The position numbers and the translations under genes were made by a program. Positions 32,181-40,417 of a DNA stretch of 49,714 bases are shown here, piece by piece. The first letter of the stretch is position 1, and every line of letters begins with the position of its first letter. The notes below the pieces were generated by a model. The model saw only the letters and a program-made list of their open reading frames with translations, was not told the DNA's origin and ran no database searches. The stretch is from an uncultured Solibacteraceae bacterium (GTDB lineage: Bacteria; Acidobacteriota; Terriglobia; Bryobacterales; Bryobacteraceae): positions 13,609 through 63,322 of the forward strand of contig CAYMHP010000001.1 of the NCBI GenBank assembly GCA_964390225.1, in the 5' to 3' direction.

Positions 32181-33353
32181 TTACGGCGTCCACTTCATCG
32201 CCAGCACCGTTACGTCGTCGGATTGCGGCGCGCCCGATGTGAATTCGCGGACCGCGCCCAGAACCGCATCGATCATCTGGGCGGGCTGCTGCCCGGCAGC
32301 GCCAGCCAGCGCCGTTTTCAAACGCCGGTCGCCGAAGAAGTGTTGCTCGGCGTCCATTGCTTCATTCACTCCATCCGTGAACAGGAAAACGGAATCGCCG
32401 GGCGCCAGCCGCATCCGGCCGGTCTCGTACTGGGCGTCGGGCAGCAGTCCGATAACGACCCCCGCTGGCTTTTCAATATCGCGCAATTCGCCCGCCGCCG
32501 AGACCACATAAGGCGGGTTGTGCCCGCCAAGGCAGAATTCCAGCTCACCGGTATGGGTGTGCAGAATCGCATAGAACACGGTTACGTATACAGCGGCTTC
32601 GCCCTGGCCGCCCAGGACCTGATTGGCGTACAGGAGGCATTCGGCAGGCGAGACCCCCTGCAACGCGGTGGCGTGTAGCAGCGTGCGGCTCACTGCCATA
32701 AACAGTGCCGCGGGCACTCCTTTTCCGGAAACGTCGCCGATCAGGAAACCCAGGCGGTGCTCGTCAATCAGGAAGAAATCGTAAAAGTCGCCGCCCACCT
32801 GGCGCGCAGGAATCATCTCGGCGCGCAAGGAAAAGTCGTGCCGGTCGGGGAAGAACTCCCGCGGTAGGATCGAGGCCTGAATGCGGGCCGCAATCTCGAG
32901 CTCCTGTTCCAGCGCCACCAGCCGCGCGCGCGCCTCTTCGCCCCGCCGTTCGAGAGCGAGCGCCTCCTGCGTGCGCCTCAGGGTCGTTTCGAAATCCTGA
33001 AAGTCTATGGGTTTGGTGAGAAAGTCGAAGGCGCCGCGGTTCATCGCCGTGCGGATGTTCTGCATGTCGCCATACGCGGAAAGGATCACGGCTTTGACGA
33101 TCCGCTGATCCAGCCCATTTAGCTTGCCGAGCAGCGCCAGACCGTCCATCACGGGCATGTTGATGTCGGTGACGACCAGGCCCAAGTTGGGATCCGCGCC
33201 CAGCCGGTCCAGCGCCTCTTTCCCGTTGCGAGCGAATAGGAATTGAAACTCGCCGTTGCGGCGCTTGAACCGCTGCCGGATCAGCTCTTCGATATCGGGC
33301 TCGTCGTCGACGATTAGAACCCGCACTGGCGCTTTTTCGTCCGAAGCCGTCAT
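32181..33353 (-). CDS. response regulator fused to PP2C/SpoIIE-type serine phosphatase (RsbU-like)
   Basis: REC motifs (VLIVDDEPD, VVTDINMPVMDG, TKP) followed by PP2C motifs (GGDFYDF, GDVSGKG, TDGVNEA, DDVTVL). The start overlaps the upstream kinase stop by 4 nt. Confidence 0.9.
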   Translation of the reverse strand: MTASDEKAPVRVLIVDDEPDIEELIRQRFKRRNGEFQFLFARNGKEALDRLGADPNLGLVVTDINMPVMDGLALLGKLNGLDQRIVKAVILSAYGDMQNIRTAMNRGAFDFLTKPIDFQDFETTLRRTQEALALERRGEEARARLVALEQELEIAARIQASILPREFFPDRHDFSLRAEMIPARQVGGDFYDFFLIDEHRLGFLIGDVSGKGVPAALFMAVSRTLLHATALQGVSPAECLLYANQVLGGQGEAAVYVTVFYAILHTHTGELEFCLGGHNPPYVVSAAGELRDIEKPAGVVIGLLPDAQYETGRMRLAPGDSVFLFTDGVNEAMDAEQHFFGDRRLKTALAGAAGQQPAQMIDAVLGAVREFTSGAPQSDDVTVLAMKWTP

Positions 33354-35077
33354 GATTGACCCAAGAACCGGCGAGGCAGCTTCAACGTGAATTCCGTCCA
33401 GTCGCCTTCGCGTGAGTCGACCTGCATTTCTCCACGATGTTCTTGCACCACGATCTCGTAACTGATCGAAAGCCCGAGCCCGGTTCCCTCGCCCGCCGCC
33501 TTCGTGGTGAAGAACGGATCGAAGATGCGATCGAGAACGGCTGACGGAATACCGACGCCGTTGTCCCAGATTCTGACCTCGACGGTCTCCCCGTAGTTTC
33601 GCGTCGTAATCCGGATTGTTGGGATATAAGCCGATTGACCGGCCTGCGACTTTTTCCGGATGGCATAGAAGGCGTTAGAGGCGATGTTCAGAAAGACGCG
33701 GCTGAGGTCCTGCGGGATAACGTCGACCATTCCCACCTCGGGATCGTACGAGCCCTGAATATCCGCCTGAAATGAGTTGTCTTGAGCGCGCATCCCGTGA
33801 AACGCCAGGTTTACGTATTCGCGGACAAGCGCATTGAGGTCGGTAGCACGCCGCTCTCCGGGTTGGCCGCGCGAGTGCGCCAGCATGGCCCGGATGATGC
33901 TGTCGGCGCGCGCTCCGTGCTCGCGCACCTTGCCGATATTCTGCTCGAGATCGCTTGCGATTTCGCGCAGCTCCTGAACTTCTTCCGGCGCAAGCTTCCC
34001 GGCGACGCGGTCGAGAATGGCGGCTTGCTCATGCACCAGGTCGGCGCAGATTTCCGAAAAGTTCATGACGAAGTTCAGCGGATTTTTGATTTCGTGCGCC
34101 ACGCCCGCCGTCAGCGCTCCCAGCGACGCCAGTTTCTCCTGGACGCTCAGTTCCTCGCGGAGCCGTTTCTTTTCCAAAAGCGCCCCGATGCGCGCTCTCA
34201 GCAGCACGGGGTCGAATGGCTTAAACAGGTAATCTTCGGCGCCGATCTGGATGGCGCGAACGACGCCCGCCATCTCATCGAGCGCCGAGATGATCACTAC
34301 CGGGATCGCGCGCATGCGGCGATCCTCTTTCATGCGAGTGAGCACTTCGAATCCATCCATGACGGGCATCATGATGTCGAGCAGGACGAGGTCGAAATGC
34401 TCGGTGGCCACCCGGTCGAGCGCCTCGCTGCCGTTGCGCGCGGAGGCCACTGCGTAGCCCTGCCGCTTCAAACGCCGGCAGAGGATGTGGCGATTCGTGG
34501 AATTATCGTCGACAACCAGCAGACGGGCGCCGGAGCCAGCCGGCTGCGCCGTAGGCGCCTCCTGCGGTTCTTCGGAAGACTCGGGCGGCCGGGTATAACT
34601 CAGTAGCGCGACAAGCGAGGTCGCCGCCGACCGGATTCGCTGCAAGTCCTGAGGCCAATCGGGCGCGGCCCAATTTTCGGGCGCCCGCCCCAGTTCGTCG
34701 AGCGAGTGGCGTATGCGCTCCACCCGGGGCCGTATGTTTTCACACAGCCGCTCCACCTCGGCGAACGCGATAGAGTCGCGGTTGGCGAGCGCCTCGTTGA
34801 TGCTGCTCAACACCGCGCGCGCCGAAAACTCGATCGTCCGCAGCAGCTCGAGCGACTGCTTTTTGCCGGCGGCCGAGGCGTCTTCGATCAGCATCTCGGC
34901 GTAGCCAAGAATGTGATTCACCGGCGTGCGCGCGTTATGCCGTAGCTCGATCAGCTCCGCGTCGCGCAGCGTGCCGGGTTCGGGTTGAGGCGCAGGTGCA
35001 GTGTCGGCGGTCACTGGGTACTTTCTTCCTGATCGGTGCCGAAACGAGCGCCGATCCGAGGCGTTTGGCCGTGGCAT
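33350..35077 (-). CDS. hybrid histidine kinase: orphan HisKA-like helix, REC, HisKA, HATPase_c
   Basis: H-box-like [21 protein letters not shown] ([23 protein letters not shown]). A second H-box AHEIKNPLN. ATPase boxes NASNAFYA, DNGVGIP and GTGLGLS. Start uncertain: ATG 35077 or GTG 35014. The track start at 35362 would overlap the divergent regulator gene. Confidence 0.85.
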
Positions 35078-35110
35078 TGCGATTGCTGCAACTTGAGGGC
35101 CAAGGAACTC

Positions 35111-35491
35111 ATGCCCAAGATCCTGATCGTCGAGGACAACGAGATGAACCGCGACATGCTCCGGCGGCGGCTCGCTCGCAAGGGTTTTGAAACAATCGTA
35201 GCGGGCGATGGTTTGGACGGAGTCGCCATGGCTGCATCCGGTCAGCCGGACCTCATCCTCATGGACATGAGCCTTCCGGCGCTCGACGGGTGGGAAGCCA
35301 CCCGTCGAATCAAAGCATCTCCCGAAACCCATTCGATTCCGGTGATCGCCCTCACTGCTCACGCAATGGCGGGCGACCGTGAACGCGCCTTGGAGGCCGG
35401 ATGTGATGATTACGACACCAAACCCATCGAGTTCCCTGTGTTATTAGAGAAAATAGAGGCGCTGCTCGCCCACAGCCAATCGCGGCATTGA
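35111..35491 (+). CDS. single-domain (CheY-like) response regulator
   Basis: ATG at 35111 gives [30 protein letters not shown], and ALTAHA...DYDTKP. Confidence 0.9.
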
Positions 35492-35510
35492 GCGGCATCG
35501 CTGCGTAATC

Positions 35511-38342
35511 ATGGCTGACACAACTGCGGACCTGGTCCCTTTCGAGGCTTTGCTGGAGTCCACTAACGAGGGTCTCTACGGCGTCGATCTGGAGGGCCGC
35601 TGCACCTTTCTGAATCGCGCCGGCGCGCGTATGCTGGGCTTCACCCGGTACGAGGTACTCGGCCGCAACATGCACCGCCTGGTGCACCATTCGCGAGAGG
35701 ACCGGACGTCGTACCCCGAGTCGGAATGCCCCATCACTCGCACCTTTCAAACGGGACAGTCGTACCGCATTGAACACGAAGTGCTCTGGCGCAAGGACGG
35801 AACATGGTTCCCGGCGGAGTACTCGGCCTCCCCGATTCTCCAAAAAGGTATAGTGCGCGGGGCCGTCGTCACTTTCATGGACATCACACTGCGGCGCCAG
35901 CAGGAGCGGCGGCTGCGGGTACAACACGATGTCAGCCGGGTAATGGCGGAACCCGTCTCGCTTATCGAGGCGCTGCCGCGTATATTGCAGGCGATTGGCG
36001 AAAATCTGGGTTGGGATCTCGGAGTCCTTTGGCTGGTGAACCGCCGCCGTGCTGTCCTTCGGCCCGAGGCCATCTGGCACTCCGCCGCAATGGGAGCGGT
36101 CGATTTTGAGAGTGTCACACGCGAGATGACCCTGGCGCGCGGCTCCGGTCTTCCCGGGCGCGTCTGGCAGGAGGGCAACCCGGTGTGGCTCCCCGCTCTG
36201 ACGGAGGATGCCGTAGTTTCTCCGGTGCAGCTGAAGGCGCTGGAACACGCGCGGGCCGTTCTGGCATTTCCGATTCGCAGCGGCCGCCGCATATCGGGCG
36301 TCATCGAATTCTTCACGCGGGAGGTCCTGGAGCCCGATGAGGAGTTGCTTCGCACTGTTAGCACGCTGGGCAGCCAGATTGGCGAGTTCATCGAGCGGGC
36401 GCTGGGAGAGGAAGAACTCCGGATCCGCGATCGGGCCATCGCCTCGAGCACAAACGGCATTGTCATTACTGACGCCACCCGGCCCGACAATCCGATCATC
36501 TACGTAAACCCGGCGTTTGAGAAGTTGACGGGATACACCGCCGAGGAAGCCATGGGGCGGAACTGCCGTTTCCTGCAGGGCCCCGCTACCGATCGCGATG
36601 CGATTGCGCGCATTCGCGCCGCCATCGAGCAACAGCAGGACGTCAACATGATTCTGCTAAACCTCCGCAAAGACGGCACACCGTTTTGGAATGACCTGAC
36701 GATCGCGCCGGTGCGCGACGACTCCGGCCGCGTCACCCACTTCGTCGGGCTGCAAAACGACGTGACCGATCGGAAGCTTGCGGAAGCCGAACTGGTGACC
36801 GCCAAGGAAGCCGCCGAAGTCGCCAGCAAGGCCAAGAGCCAATTTCTGGCGAACATGAGCCACGAGCTTCGCACACCTCTCAACGCGATCATCGGATACA
36901 GCGAAATGCTCGAGGAACAGGCGCAGGATCTCGGAATGGCGGATCTGGTGCCCGACTTGCAAAAGATCAACACCGCGGGAAAGCATCTGCTCGCGCTCAT
37001 CAACGACATCCTCGATCTCTCGAAGATCGAAGCGGGCAAGATGGATCTGTTCCTCGAGACCTTCGATGTCGACCGCATGGTGCACGAGGTGAGCACCACG
37101 ATCAAGCCGCTGATCGATCGCAAGGGCAATCGCCTCCAGGTCAGGCTGACGCCCGATCTGCCTCAGATGCATGCCGACCTGACCAAGGTCCGGCAAAGCC
37201 TTTTTAACCTGCTCTCCAACGCTTCGAAATTTACGGAGCAGGGCGATATCACGCTGGATGTGAACACCGAGCAGACAGGCGGCCAAACCTGGGTGGTGCT
37301 GCGCGTACAAGATACCGGCATCGGCATGACTCGCGAGCAGATCTCCAAACTGTTCGAGCCGTTCACACAGGCCGACCGGTCGACCACGCGAAAGTTCGGC
37401 GGGACTGGGCTTGGATTGGCGATTACCCGGCGCTTTTGCCGCATGATGGGCGGCGATGTGACGGTCGAGAGCGAGTTGGGCAAGGGGTCCACGTTCGTCA
37501 TCCGCCTCCCCGCTCTGGTCGTTCCTTCGCGGCACGACCAGGGTGAAGATATCAAACGAGCCGCGGCGAGTAACGGAAACCGTGCTGGCACCGTGCTGGT
37601 GATCGATGACGACCCCGCGGCGCGCGACCTGATGAGCCGCTTCCTCACCCGTGAAGGATTTCACTTCGTGCTAGCTACGAACGGCGAAGAGGGCCTGAAA
37701 CTGGCGCGCGAAATTCACCCGAACGTGATCACGCTCGATGTCATGATGCCCAAAATGGACGGCTGGGCAGTGCTGCAGGAGCTCAAGGCCGATCCAGAAC
37801 TGCGCACTGTCCCGGTAATTATGGTCACCATCATCGATGACAAAAACATGGGCTACACGCTGGGCGCCGCCGATTACATGACCAAGCCGATCGATCGCGA
37901 GCAGCTCAGCAGCATTCTGAACAAGTACCGCTGCCCGCAACCGCCCTGCCCGGTTCTTGTGGTGGAAGATGACGACAGCTCGCGCGAGATGATGCGTTCC
38001 ATGCTGCAGCGCGAGGGCTGGGCGGTGACCCAGGCGACCAACGGGCGCGAAGGACTGGAGTGTGTCGCCCGCGAGCGTCCCCACGTAATTCTGCTCGATT
38101 TGATGATGCCCGAAATGGACGGCTTCGAGTTCCTGGTCGAACTGCACCGGAATCCGCCGTGGCGCGACATCCCCGTCGTAGTAATCACAGCCAAGGAGCT
38201 GACCGCCGACGAGCGCGCCCGCCTGAACGGCTCCGTCGAGAAGGTATTACTCAAAGGCGCATTCAGTCGCGAGGAACTGCTGAGCCAGGTCCGCGAGCTG
38301 GTGGCGGCGTGTTTGCCCCCCGCCGATGCAGTCTCCGGCTAG
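35511..38342 (+). CDS. PAS-GAF-LOV hybrid sensor histidine kinase with two C-terminal receiver domains
   Basis: 943 aa. PAS at about aa 10-125. GAF at about aa 140-295. LOV at about aa 305-420 with GRNCRFLQG (Cys352, TGC at 36564-36566) and [26 protein letters not shown]-box [18 protein letters not shown]. HATPase DTGIGM and [11 protein letters not shown]1 [22 protein letters not shown]2 [19 protein letters not shown]. Confidence 0.92.
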
Positions 38343-38386
38343 GTGCTTTCCCGCGACACGGGACGGCCCCGGAGTAAGCTAGCAGC

Positions 38387-40417
38387 ATGAAGCTGTATTC
38401 CGCGCTGCTCTTGCTGGTCCCCGGTTTAATCGCGCAAGACCGGCCCTTGGCGTCTCTGCCCTACACTCCCAGCCTCGACACCGCGTTCATCGATCGGGCC
38501 GCCGACGCGTGCGTCGATTTCTTTCAATTTGCCTGCGGAAACTGGATCAAGCTGAATCCGATTCCCGCGGACCAGGCGCGCTGGGATGTCTACAGCAAGT
38601 TGCACGACGATAATCTGCGGCTGCTGTGGGGCATCCTCGAGGCCGCCGCGAAGCCATCACCGGACCGAACCCCGAATGAGCAAAAGATCGGCGACTACTT
38701 CGCCGCGTGCATGGACGAGACTGCGATCGATAAGACCGGAGCCGAGGCGCTCCGGCCGGAGTTGGATTCGATCGCCGCGCTGCAACGTCTCTCCGACGTG
38801 CCGCCGCTGCTTGCCCGGCTGCACCTGGAGTCGGCGCGTACCAGTCCGCTGTTCGGGTTCAGCTCGTCGCAGGACTATGCCGATTCGAGCCGCATGATTG
38901 CGTTTGCCACGGCTGGCGGCCTCGGGCTGCCCGACCGGGATTACTACGTGAAGTCCGACGCGAAATCGCAGGAGATTCGTGCGAAGTACCTGGACCACGT
39001 GGCGAACACCTTTCAGTTGCTGGGCGATGCGGCCGCTAATGCGACGGCCGAGTCCCAGGTCGTCATGGCCATCGAGACGGCCCTCGCCAAAGCGTCGCTG
39101 ACCCGCGTCGACAAGCGTGACCCCTACAAGCTGTTTCACAAGGTGAGCGGCGCCGAATTGCTGAAAATGACGCCTTCGTTCGCATGGAGTTCGTACTGGT
39201 CGGCGTTGGGGTTGCGCGCCCCCGCGCAAATCAATGTCACCGAGCCGGAATTCTTCCGCGAACTCGAGCGCCTGCTGGAAAGCCGCAGCGTCTCGGACTG
39301 GAAGACTTATCTGCGCTGGCAACTGGCGCGCGAGAAAGCGCCGTACCTTTCGTCGGCATTCGTCAATGCCGATTTCAACTTCTATCGCAAGTACCTGCGC
39401 GGCGTCGACCAGATCCAACCCCGATGGAAGCGCTGCGTCCAATATGTGGATTTTCAACTCGGGGAAGCGCTCGGCCAGGTCTTCGTGGCCAGGACGTTCA
39501 GCCCCGAGACCAAGCAGCGGGCCCTCGCCGTCACCAAGGAAATCGAGAGAGCCATGGAAGCCGACCTCCGCCAGTTGACTTGGATGGGCCCGGCGACCAA
39601 GGCGGAAGCACTCGCCAAGCTACACGCGGTCGTCAACAAAATCGGATACCCGGACAAGTGGCGCGACTACAGCGCCGTTCATATCGTGCGCGGCGATTTC
39701 GTGGGCGACGTCAACCAGGCGGTCGTCTTCGAATCCAAGCGCCAGTTGAACAAGATCGGCAAGCCTGTCGACCGCACCGAGTGGCAGATCACGCCTCCGA
39801 CGGTAAATGCCTACTACGACCCGCAGATGAACGATATGAACTTCCCGGCTGGCGTTCTGGAGCCGCCGCTGTTCGACCCGAAGATGGATGACGCGCCGAA
39901 TTACGGCAACACGGGCGCGACCATCGGGCACGAGCTGACCCACGGCTTCGACGATGAGGGCCGCCAGTTCGATGCGCGCGGCAATCTGCGCGACTGGTGG
40001 ACCAAGCAGGATTCCGCCGAGTTCGTCAAACGCGCCGCGTGCGTGTCGGACCAATACGCGCAGTACACCGTCGTGGACGATATCAAAATCAACAGCAAGC
40101 TCACTCTCGGCGAAGATGTCGCGGACCTGGGTGGAACCATCCTGGCCTACATGGCCTGGCAGGATGCGACCCGCAATGAACAACTCAAGCCGATCGACAA
40201 TTTCTCTCCCGCTCAGCGCTTCTTTATCGGGATGGCGCAGTGGGCATGCGGCGACGAGCGTCCGGAGAGCCGTAGAGCGTCGGCCATCACCGACCCGCAT
40301 TCGCCGGTGAAATACCGCATCAACGGCGTAGTCTCGAACATGCCCGAGTTCGGCCGCGCGTTCGCCTGCAAGGCCGGCCAGCCGATGGTCCGCGAGCAGG
40401 CCTGCCGCGTCTGGTAG
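38387..40417 (+). CDS. M13 family metallopeptidase (PepO / endothelin-converting-enzyme-like)
   Basis: 676 aa. Signal peptide. Motifs CVDFFQFACGNW, NAYY and HELTHGFD (HExxH), with GEDVADLGG (the ExxxD third ligand), and a C-terminal CRVW. Confidence 0.9.
   Translation: MKLYSALLLLVPGLIAQDRPLASLPYTPSLDTAFIDRAADACVDFFQFACGNWIKLNPIPADQARWDVYSKLHDDNLRLLWGILEAAAKPSPDRTPNEQKIGDYFAACMDETAIDKTGAEALRPELDSIAALQRLSDVPPLLARLHLESARTSPLFGFSSSQDYADSSRMIAFATAGGLGLPDRDYYVKSDAKSQEIRAKYLDHVANTFQLLGDAAANATAESQVVMAIETALAKASLTRVDKRDPYKLFHKVSGAELLKMTPSFAWSSYWSALGLRAPAQINVTEPEFFRELERLLESRSVSDWKTYLRWQLAREKAPYLSSAFVNADFNFYRKYLRGVDQIQPRWKRCVQYVDFQLGEALGQVFVARTFSPETKQRALAVTKEIERAMEADLRQLTWMGPATKAEALAKLHAVVNKIGYPDKWRDYSAVHIVRGDFVGDVNQAVVFESKRQLNKIGKPVDRTEWQITPPTVNAYYDPQMNDMNFPAGVLEPPLFDPKMDDAPNYGNTGATIGHELTHGFDDEGRQFDARGNLRDWWTKQDSAEFVKRAACVSDQYAQYTVVDDIKINSKLTLGEDVADLGGTILAYMAWQDATRNEQLKPIDNFSPAQRFFIGMAQWACGDERPESRRASAITDPHSPVKYRINGVVSNMPEFGRAFACKAGQPMVREQACRVW

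Follow-up and report, generated by a model that had tools for sequence, protein, structure and literature searches.

The window, a 49,714-nucleotide stretch of DNA from an uncultured Solibacteraceae bacterium, encodes a 943-amino-acid hybrid histidine kinase with a LOV domain, and the identity of residues 307–420 of this protein as a LOV domain was confirmed at the sequence level. We put the probability that it is the photosensory LOV domain of a blue-light-regulated hybrid kinase at about 0.85–0.9. The data are best explained by a hybrid histidine kinase that is soluble and presumably dimeric, with the LOV domain probably serving as its photosensory module. The source genome is a soil metagenome-assembled genome (MAG) of 470 contigs that is 80.6% complete. 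The LOV domain is the only one found there, and the next-best matches to the LOV segment in the rest of the genome are generic PAS domains with 30% identity.

LOV identity and predicted flavin site

The gene, the LOV core, and the two residues on which the predicted photochemistry depends are located as follows.

35511–38342, + strand: gene of the LOV hybrid histidine kinase, 943 amino acids, PAS-GAF-LOV-HisKA-HATPase-REC-REC (open reading frame with translation, and Pfam)
36429–36770, + strand: LOV core, residues 307–420 (Pfam PAS fold PF00989 at 307–418 and PAS_9 at 315–420)
36564–36566, + strand: TGC codon of Cys352, the predicted flavin-C4a adduct cysteine (read directly)
36753–36755, + strand: codon of Gln415, the conserved I-beta signalling glutamine (aligned with Q123 of YtvA/YF1)

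Bases 36552–36581 read ATG GGG CGG AAC TGC CGT TTC CTG CAG GGC, and the motif GRNCRFLQG spans residues 349–357 with Cys352 inside it. An earlier note on this DNA had proposed a LOV signature with Cys352 encoded by TGC at 36564–36566. The direct read returned the same codon, and the signature was found to be canonical, containing the GXNCRFLQ motif with its adduct-forming cysteine and giving strong LOV matches in both PDB and NCBIfam. When the 116-residue LOV fragment was compared with PDB sequences using phmmer, the best match was 9vf7 (E = 6.6e-44), and aureochrome, phototropin LOV1 and LOV2, YtvA, Pseudomonas short-LOV, and Brucella LOV-HK were matched with E = 1e-35 to 1e-29. The best NCBIfam models of the fragment were YtvA_fam (E = 3e-46) and BluLightHisKinLov (E = 2e-42), with generic PAS models scoring far lower. 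Moreover, Pfam PAS_9 matched the whole protein with E = 1e-39, its best stretch being residues 315–420, and the PAS alpha/beta fold of the segment was recovered by Pfam, AlphaFold2, and Foldseek.

Residues 314–669 of the kinase aligned end to end with YF1 (4gcz; E = 1e-45), and the flavin contacts could thus be examined residue by residue. The mapping was made through the gap-free part of this alignment. Residues C62, R63, Q66, R79, N94, and N104 of YtvA, which we take to be flavin contacts, together with Q123, corresponded to C352, R353, Q356, R369, N384, N394, and Q415 of the window kinase, and all seven were present. Q123 is the flavin-contacting and signalling glutamine of YtvA (PMC6798134). 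The earlier note had allowed that flavin-contacting residues besides the cysteine might be missing; because every mapped contact is present, namely R353, Q356, R369, N384, N394, and Q415, this objection fails.

A search of 5.8 billion proteins returned about 35 full-length orthologues of the kinase with 61–73% identity and lengths of 930–950 amino acids, and the named ones come from Bryobacteraceae MAGs. Among 28 aligned sequences, Cys352 was kept in 27, Gln415 in 26, Asn384 in 27, and Asn394 in 25, and His451, Asp743, and Asp863 were kept in all 28. Three metagenomic orthologues depart from the pattern at the flavin site: P0039 carries GKGWDFLQG (Cys to Trp) and a Met at the position of the signalling Gln, P0043 has GKNPKFLQG in place of the LOV motif, and P0037 has a Leu at the position of the signalling Gln. 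These three sequences are a natural decay of the predicted LOV photochemistry residues within the orthologue group. A fourth metagenomic orthologue, P0014, shows the motif GRNCGFLQG. The overall architecture and the linker length are unchanged in all four proteins. Separately, residue 385 (36663–36665, + strand) is a Leu in the window kinase and a Tyr in the other 27 aligned orthologues (LLNYRKDG).

Kinase architecture and predicted LOV-to-kinase coupling

The segment 36423–36770 (+ strand), which the earlier note had assigned to residues of about 305–420, corresponds to residues 305–420 of the open reading frame 35511–38342, and its stop-free translation matched the sequence quoted there. The same note had described a PAS-GAF-LOV hybrid kinase with two receivers, and the Pfam architecture agreed, with PAS_4 at 15–130, GAF_2 at 150–295, PAS_9 at 315–420, HisKA at 441–509, HATPase_c at 556–668, and two Response_reg domains whose receiver residues are intact. 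The N-terminus is common to the 27 aligned full-length orthologues (61–73% identity), which supports the ATG at 35511 as the start. The remaining features of the kinase are listed below.

35553–35900, + strand: N-terminal PAS domain, residues 15–130 (Pfam PAS_4, E = 1e-23)
35958–36395, + strand: GAF domain, residues 150–295, not of the phytochrome type (Pfam GAF_2, E = 5e-15)
36339–36443, + strand: predicted continuous GAF-to-LOV helix, residues 277–311, an A'alpha-type connector (AlphaFold2 model)
36768–36860, + strand: J-alpha / coiled-coil linker, residues 420–450 (model helix and fixed length)
36861–36863, + strand: codon of His451, the predicted phospho-accepting His in the SHELRTP H-box (Pfam HisKA 441–509; invariant)
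37176–37514, + strand: HATPase_c catalytic domain, residues 556–668, with N, G1, F, and G2 boxes (Pfam, E = 2e-29)
37593–37919, + strand: receiver 1, residues 695–803, phospho-Asp D743 (Pfam Response_reg)
37950–38300, + strand: receiver 2, residues of about 814–930, phospho-Asp D863 (second Response_reg stretch)

The protein has what a dimeric HisKA-type LOV kinase would need, that is, a helical linker running into the H-box His and a complete CA domain, in which N566, N570, D601, G603, G605, and G630–G635 are invariant among the aligned orthologues. It is likewise a hybrid kinase by its receivers, both of which keep the acidic pair, the phospho-Asp, the Thr, and the Lys. In receiver 1, D699, D700, D743, and K792 are invariant and T773 is conserved in at least 90%; in receiver 2, D820, D821, D863, T893, and K915 are invariant. 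The model of receiver 2 shows strands and helices across 814–934, with low predicted local distance difference test (pLDDT) values toward the C-terminal end. As no transmembrane segment was found in the sequence or the model, the kinase is predicted to be soluble.

The AlphaFold2 model, which was built from the orthologue alignment, had a mean pLDDT of 75.5, and the LOV core reached 87–93 over most of its length. It contains a helical spine made up of helices 126–146 (PAS to GAF), 277–311 (GAF to LOV), and 419–474, the last of which starts at the DVT motif, contains His451, and runs unbroken into the DHp domain. Foldseek searches with the model returned the LOV kinases YF1, the SB2F1 chimeras, EL346, and Brucella LOV-HK. 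The interval between T419, in the DVT motif, and H451 holds exactly 31 residues, without a single insertion or deletion among the 28 orthologues, and the same spacing was found in 43 of 43 relatives with LOV directly before HisKA. Moreover, the a/d positions of the linker (L428, A431, A435, A438, K442, F445, and M449) are invariant and make up a heptad core with 3-4 spacing, and a heptad coiled-coil transducer is the hallmark described for YF1 (PMC6798134). In the GAF-LOV connector, the motif R304-x-R306-D307-R308-A309 is invariant among the aligned orthologues.

Following the paradigm of LOV receptors and YF1 (PMC6798134), the LOV domain would bind flavin mononucleotide non-covalently, and blue or ultraviolet-A light would drive formation of the Cys352-flavin C4a adduct. 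Protonation of the flavin N5 would then flip Gln415 on strand I-beta, and this flip would alter the packing or twist (supercoiling) of the J-alpha helix, which is predicted to continue unbroken into DHp helix 1. The change in J-alpha would in turn shift the balance between kinase and phosphatase activity at His451, from which phosphoryl groups would pass to the kinase's own receivers at D743 and D863. The N-terminal PAS and GAF domains, which lie on the same predicted helical spine, could modulate the output through ligands.

In the variants of YF1, linkers of 7n residues are light-repressed and those of 7n+1 are light-activated (PMC6798134). A sign of the light response derived from linker length was rejected for the window kinase, whose linker equals that of YF1 minus two residues and is neither 7n nor 7n+1; thus, the sign is not predictable from the sequence.

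With regard to the input domains, C31, H55, H59, H60, and D64 of the N-terminal PAS are invariant among the 28 orthologues, and Y68, C73, and P74 are nearly so, the conserved motif ending in YPxxECP. These positions suggest a candidate cofactor, metal, or ligand site in the domain. Its matches among PDB sequences were weak and of a generic PAS kind, including the heme PAS of DosP (E = 1e-3). For the GAF domain, the nearest solved sequences were the GAF domains of Nlh1 and Nlh2, and for neither domain did these weak generic matches point to a ligand. A phytochrome-like PAS-GAF-(LOV) arrangement was rejected, as the protein had no PAS_2 or PHY match in Pfam and no PHY domain turned up in the 80.6% complete genome; on the structural side, the phytochrome matches in Foldseek had TM-scores of only about 0.2. 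A promoter and terminator scan of 34900–38500 gave nothing above the shuffle expectation.

Neighbouring genes and the proposed relay

Three further genes of two-component and phosphatase type stand next to the LOV kinase.

35111–35491, + strand: CheY-like single-domain response regulator, 126 amino acids (Pfam Response_reg, E = 3e-26; start taken from the sequence)
33350–35014, − strand: divergent REC-controlled histidine kinase, here HK2, 554 amino acids, with a CA-less H-box segment followed by REC-HisKA-HATPase (Pfam; GTG start at 35014)
32181–33353, − strand: REC-PP2C (SpoIIE-type) phosphatase response regulator (Pfam Response_reg and SpoIIE, E = 5e-52)

The stop of the CheY-like gene lies 19 nucleotides before the LOV kinase start, a gap of 96 nucleotides separates it from HK2 on the opposite strand, and the REC-PP2C gene overlaps the HK2 stop by 4 nucleotides. 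At its N-terminus (34877–34969, − strand), HK2 carries a HisKA-like H-box without a CA domain of its own, upstream of REC-HisKA-HATPase; all three HK2 orthologues keep this motif, including the His. The H-box might provide the hybrid LOV kinase with a His-phosphotransfer step that is built into HK2.

To sample the family, 80 other genera were represented by one genome each. The PAS-GAF-LOV region had orthologues (67–71% identity) in 3 of the 80 genera (G005, G029, and G049), and in all three HK2 and the adjacent REC-PP2C gene stood divergently beside the LOV kinase. A separate search with HK2 returned full-length orthologues (62–64%) in exactly the same three genera. The CheY-like gene was present at the loci of G029 and G049. 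The outer flanks of the window cluster (M16, PLP-enzyme, M13, and ABC genes) were absent at all three loci. The conserved clustering of a LOV kinase gene with genes for REC-PP2C and a REC-controlled kinase is newly described here.

LOV and PP2C domains also meet within single proteins of this lineage. In eight other genera of the family, all eight "short" LOV open reading frames (L090–L097) consisted of LOV followed by PP2C within about 25 codons, and in one of these family fusions Pfam placed PAS_9 at 75–170 and SpoIIE at 240–445. The fusion proteins are about 400–500 amino acids long and constitute the commonest LOV architecture in the family sample; they also occur in other families of the phylum (L139 and L140). 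As PP2C is the commonest LOV partner in the lineage, the signal of the LOV kinase could plausibly end at the REC-PP2C neighbour. Across the phylum, 25 of 299 sampled high-quality Acidobacteriota genomes carried LOV-like domains. A contig scan with generic HisKA peptides returned unrelated hybrid kinases and only one LOV locus (L010), with no PP2C near it.

Two side observations concern other LOV proteins of the phylum. In G029 (L101:662–1893, − strand), LOV and PP2C occupy two adjacent open reading frames of 132 and 266 amino acids, an arrangement that may reflect splitting of the gene, a frameshift, or faulty assembly. In another family (L133–L135, L143, and L144), longer LOV hybrid kinases were seen in open frames of about 1070–1310 amino acids, with the LOV domain about 400 residues upstream of HisKA, two receivers at the end, and a further receiver-like match about 800 nucleotides downstream.

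Gene order, co-occurrence, and the Lvr relay of Leptospira suggest how the signal could leave the LOV kinase. In the latter, the hybrid kinase LvrA passes the signal to LvrB (REC-DHp-CA), which passes it to LvrC, a receiver fused to an anti-sigma domain (PMC13269768). Accordingly modelled, the LOV kinase would phosphorylate the presumably co-transcribed CheY-like protein and the receiver of HK2. The former may act as a sink or connector, as do the single-domain regulators of alphaproteobacterial LOV kinases (PMC5964349, PMC4438053), and HK2 would phosphorylate REC-PP2C for a partner-switching-type output. On the basis of conserved gene order and co-occurrence, a downstream relay through the CheY-like protein, HK2, and REC-PP2C is a tentative proposal with slightly less than an even chance. 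Its more specific form, a light-gated, Lvr-like hybrid of two-component system and partner switch that would run from the LOV kinase through HK2 (with the extra H-box as a possible phosphotransfer step) and REC-PP2C to an unlinked STAS/anti-sigma switch, is possible and rather doubtful. If true, the cluster would correspond to the LOV-PP2C fusions of the family in "split" form.

Several points weigh against these proposals or against a light-driven kinase as such. The CheY-like gene was not found at the G005 locus (L102), where 178 nucleotides lie between the HK2 and LOV kinase matches; thus, the single-domain regulator is not an obligatory part of the cluster. The three genomes with the cluster are kin, and the synteny and co-occurrence are therefore suggestive and, as statistical evidence, weak. 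No Hpt was found in the LOV kinase cluster and the Hpt domains of the genome are unlinked to it, although hybrid kinases normally need an Hpt step. STAS-type antagonists and RsbW-like kinases occur elsewhere in the genome, also unlinked to the cluster. YF1 has 33 residues between its D(I/V)T motif and the His, compared with 31 in the window kinase. Finally, a soil MAG is the sole record of the organism, whose exposure to light is thus assumed.

The strongest competing explanation accepts a light-regulated LOV kinase and lets its output pass through an unlinked Hpt protein and response regulator, with HK2 and REC-PP2C forming a separate pathway that merely travels along. Hybrid kinases usually relay through Hpt, and the genome has five Hpt matches, none in the cluster and one of them in an open frame of 172 amino acids, possibly encoding Hpt as a protein of its own; the synteny, moreover, rests on just three related genomes. 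However, the cluster was kept while its outer flanks changed, and among the 80 sampled genera HK2 orthologues occurred only where the LOV kinase was also present. LvrA and LvrB (PMC13269768) provide a precedent for a hybrid kinase that passes its phosphoryl group directly to a REC-controlled kinase, and the LOV-PP2C fusions suggest PP2C as the usual light output of the family. This explanation was considered rather unlikely.

A second alternative concerns the input. In dark soil, the flavin might serve mainly as a redox (or oxygen) sensor, with chemical reduction instead of a photo-adduct switching the kinase. Certain LOV receptors are chemically reducible under physiological conditions and may be redox sensors (PMC6798134), and the sequencing runs that contain the locus are of soil metagenome DNA, with no RNA run among them. 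Furthermore, photolyase, PHY, and BLUF domains were not found in the genome, a negative that the completeness of 80.6% limits, and to this extent nothing else points to a life adapted to light. However, 27 of 28 orthologues retain the adduct cysteine, which is needed only for the canonical photochemistry, and 26 of 28 retain the signalling Gln, a pattern that argues for selection on photochemistry. Redox and light functions are not mutually exclusive, and a mainly redox role was judged improbable. The idea that the domain is a LOV-derived PAS relic that no longer binds flavin or signals would fit the decay in P0039, P0043, and P0037, but the window kinase retains each mapped flavin contact, the Cys, and the Gln, which makes it very improbable here.

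Comparison with known systems

With the window kinase, the Acidobacteriota, a phylum that is dominant in soils but has been little studied, gain a well-preserved, probably photoactive LOV receptor; searches of the 80.6% complete genome revealed no other photoreceptor type. Acidobacteria already figure in the plots of a 2014 census of LOV or BLUF proteins across phyla (PMC4844311), and no effector is more frequent among prokaryotic LOV receptors than the histidine kinase (PMC6798134). LOV domains of multi-sensor hybrid kinases are already in PDB, and the window kinase joins a known receptor class; as this class is textbook, its value is incremental. The family uses two designs, the LOV-PP2C fusion and the LOV kinase clustered with a REC-kinase and REC-PP2C, and these form a natural pair in which signalling from light to a partner-switching phosphatase can be compared between a single protein and a phosphorelay.

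The closest LOV sequences are those of PDB 9vf7/9vf8 ("histidine kinase"; E = 7e-44) and of 6rhg and related entries ("Multi-sensor hybrid histidine kinase"; E = 3e-35). These proteins belong to the same general kinase class and were solved as isolated LOV domains only. The chimeras YF1 (the LOV domain of B. subtilis YtvA joined to the B. japonicum FixL kinase; 4gcz) and SB2F1 (8a3u) show the same order of LOV core, coiled-coil J-alpha, HisKA-type DHp, and CA, are among the top Foldseek matches, and have every flavin contact in common with the window kinase. However, YF1 is engineered from two modules, whereas the window kinase has PAS and GAF domains before the LOV domain and two receivers after the kinase. 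The linker of YF1 is two residues longer, and its sign rule is not transferable. In NCBIfam, the window kinase scored 145 bits with BluLightHisKinLov (NF052306; cut-off 450) and 173 bits with the YtvA family (NF052652; cut-off 250; model positions 4–130 only), and it fell short of both cut-offs because only the LOV part matches.

Among natural systems, Brucella LOVHK, Erythrobacter EL346/EL368, and Caulobacter LovK with LovR similarly place a kinase under LOV control and pair it with a single-domain regulator, and the operon of a cheY gene followed by the LOV kinase gene in the window resembles this pairing. LOV kinases control general stress responses (PMC4438053, bioRxiv 10.1101/641647), and those of the alphaproteobacteria feed a general stress response of the partner-switching type (PMC4438053; bioRxiv 10.1101/641647; PMC5964349). 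However, the alphaproteobacterial enzymes are non-hybrid kinases of the HWE/HisKA_2 type that act via PhyR/NepR/EcfG, whereas the window kinase is of the HisKA type with two receivers.

The Lvr relay resembles the cluster in that a hybrid kinase adjoins a REC-controlled kinase, which feeds, or in the window would feed, a partner-switching component fused to a receiver. Like LvrB, HK2 is laid out as REC-DHp-CA, and it aligns with positions 5–376 of the 377 in the LvrB model, but its score with that model (NF047466) was 115 against a cut-off of 500, and the LOV kinase scored 234 against a cut-off of 1200 with LvrA (NF047465). The likeness is thus an architectural analogy only. Moreover, the window system differs in its LOV input, in an output domain that is a PP2C and not a Bergerat-fold anti-sigma factor, and in the extra N-terminal H-box of HK2. 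Lastly, the LOV-PP2C (LOV-SpoIIE) fusions share the presumed logic of light controlling a PP2C phosphatase. In the window, by comparison, LOV and PP2C reside on separate proteins, which would be joined at most by a phosphorelay, and the PP2C domains of the two designs are about 30% identical.

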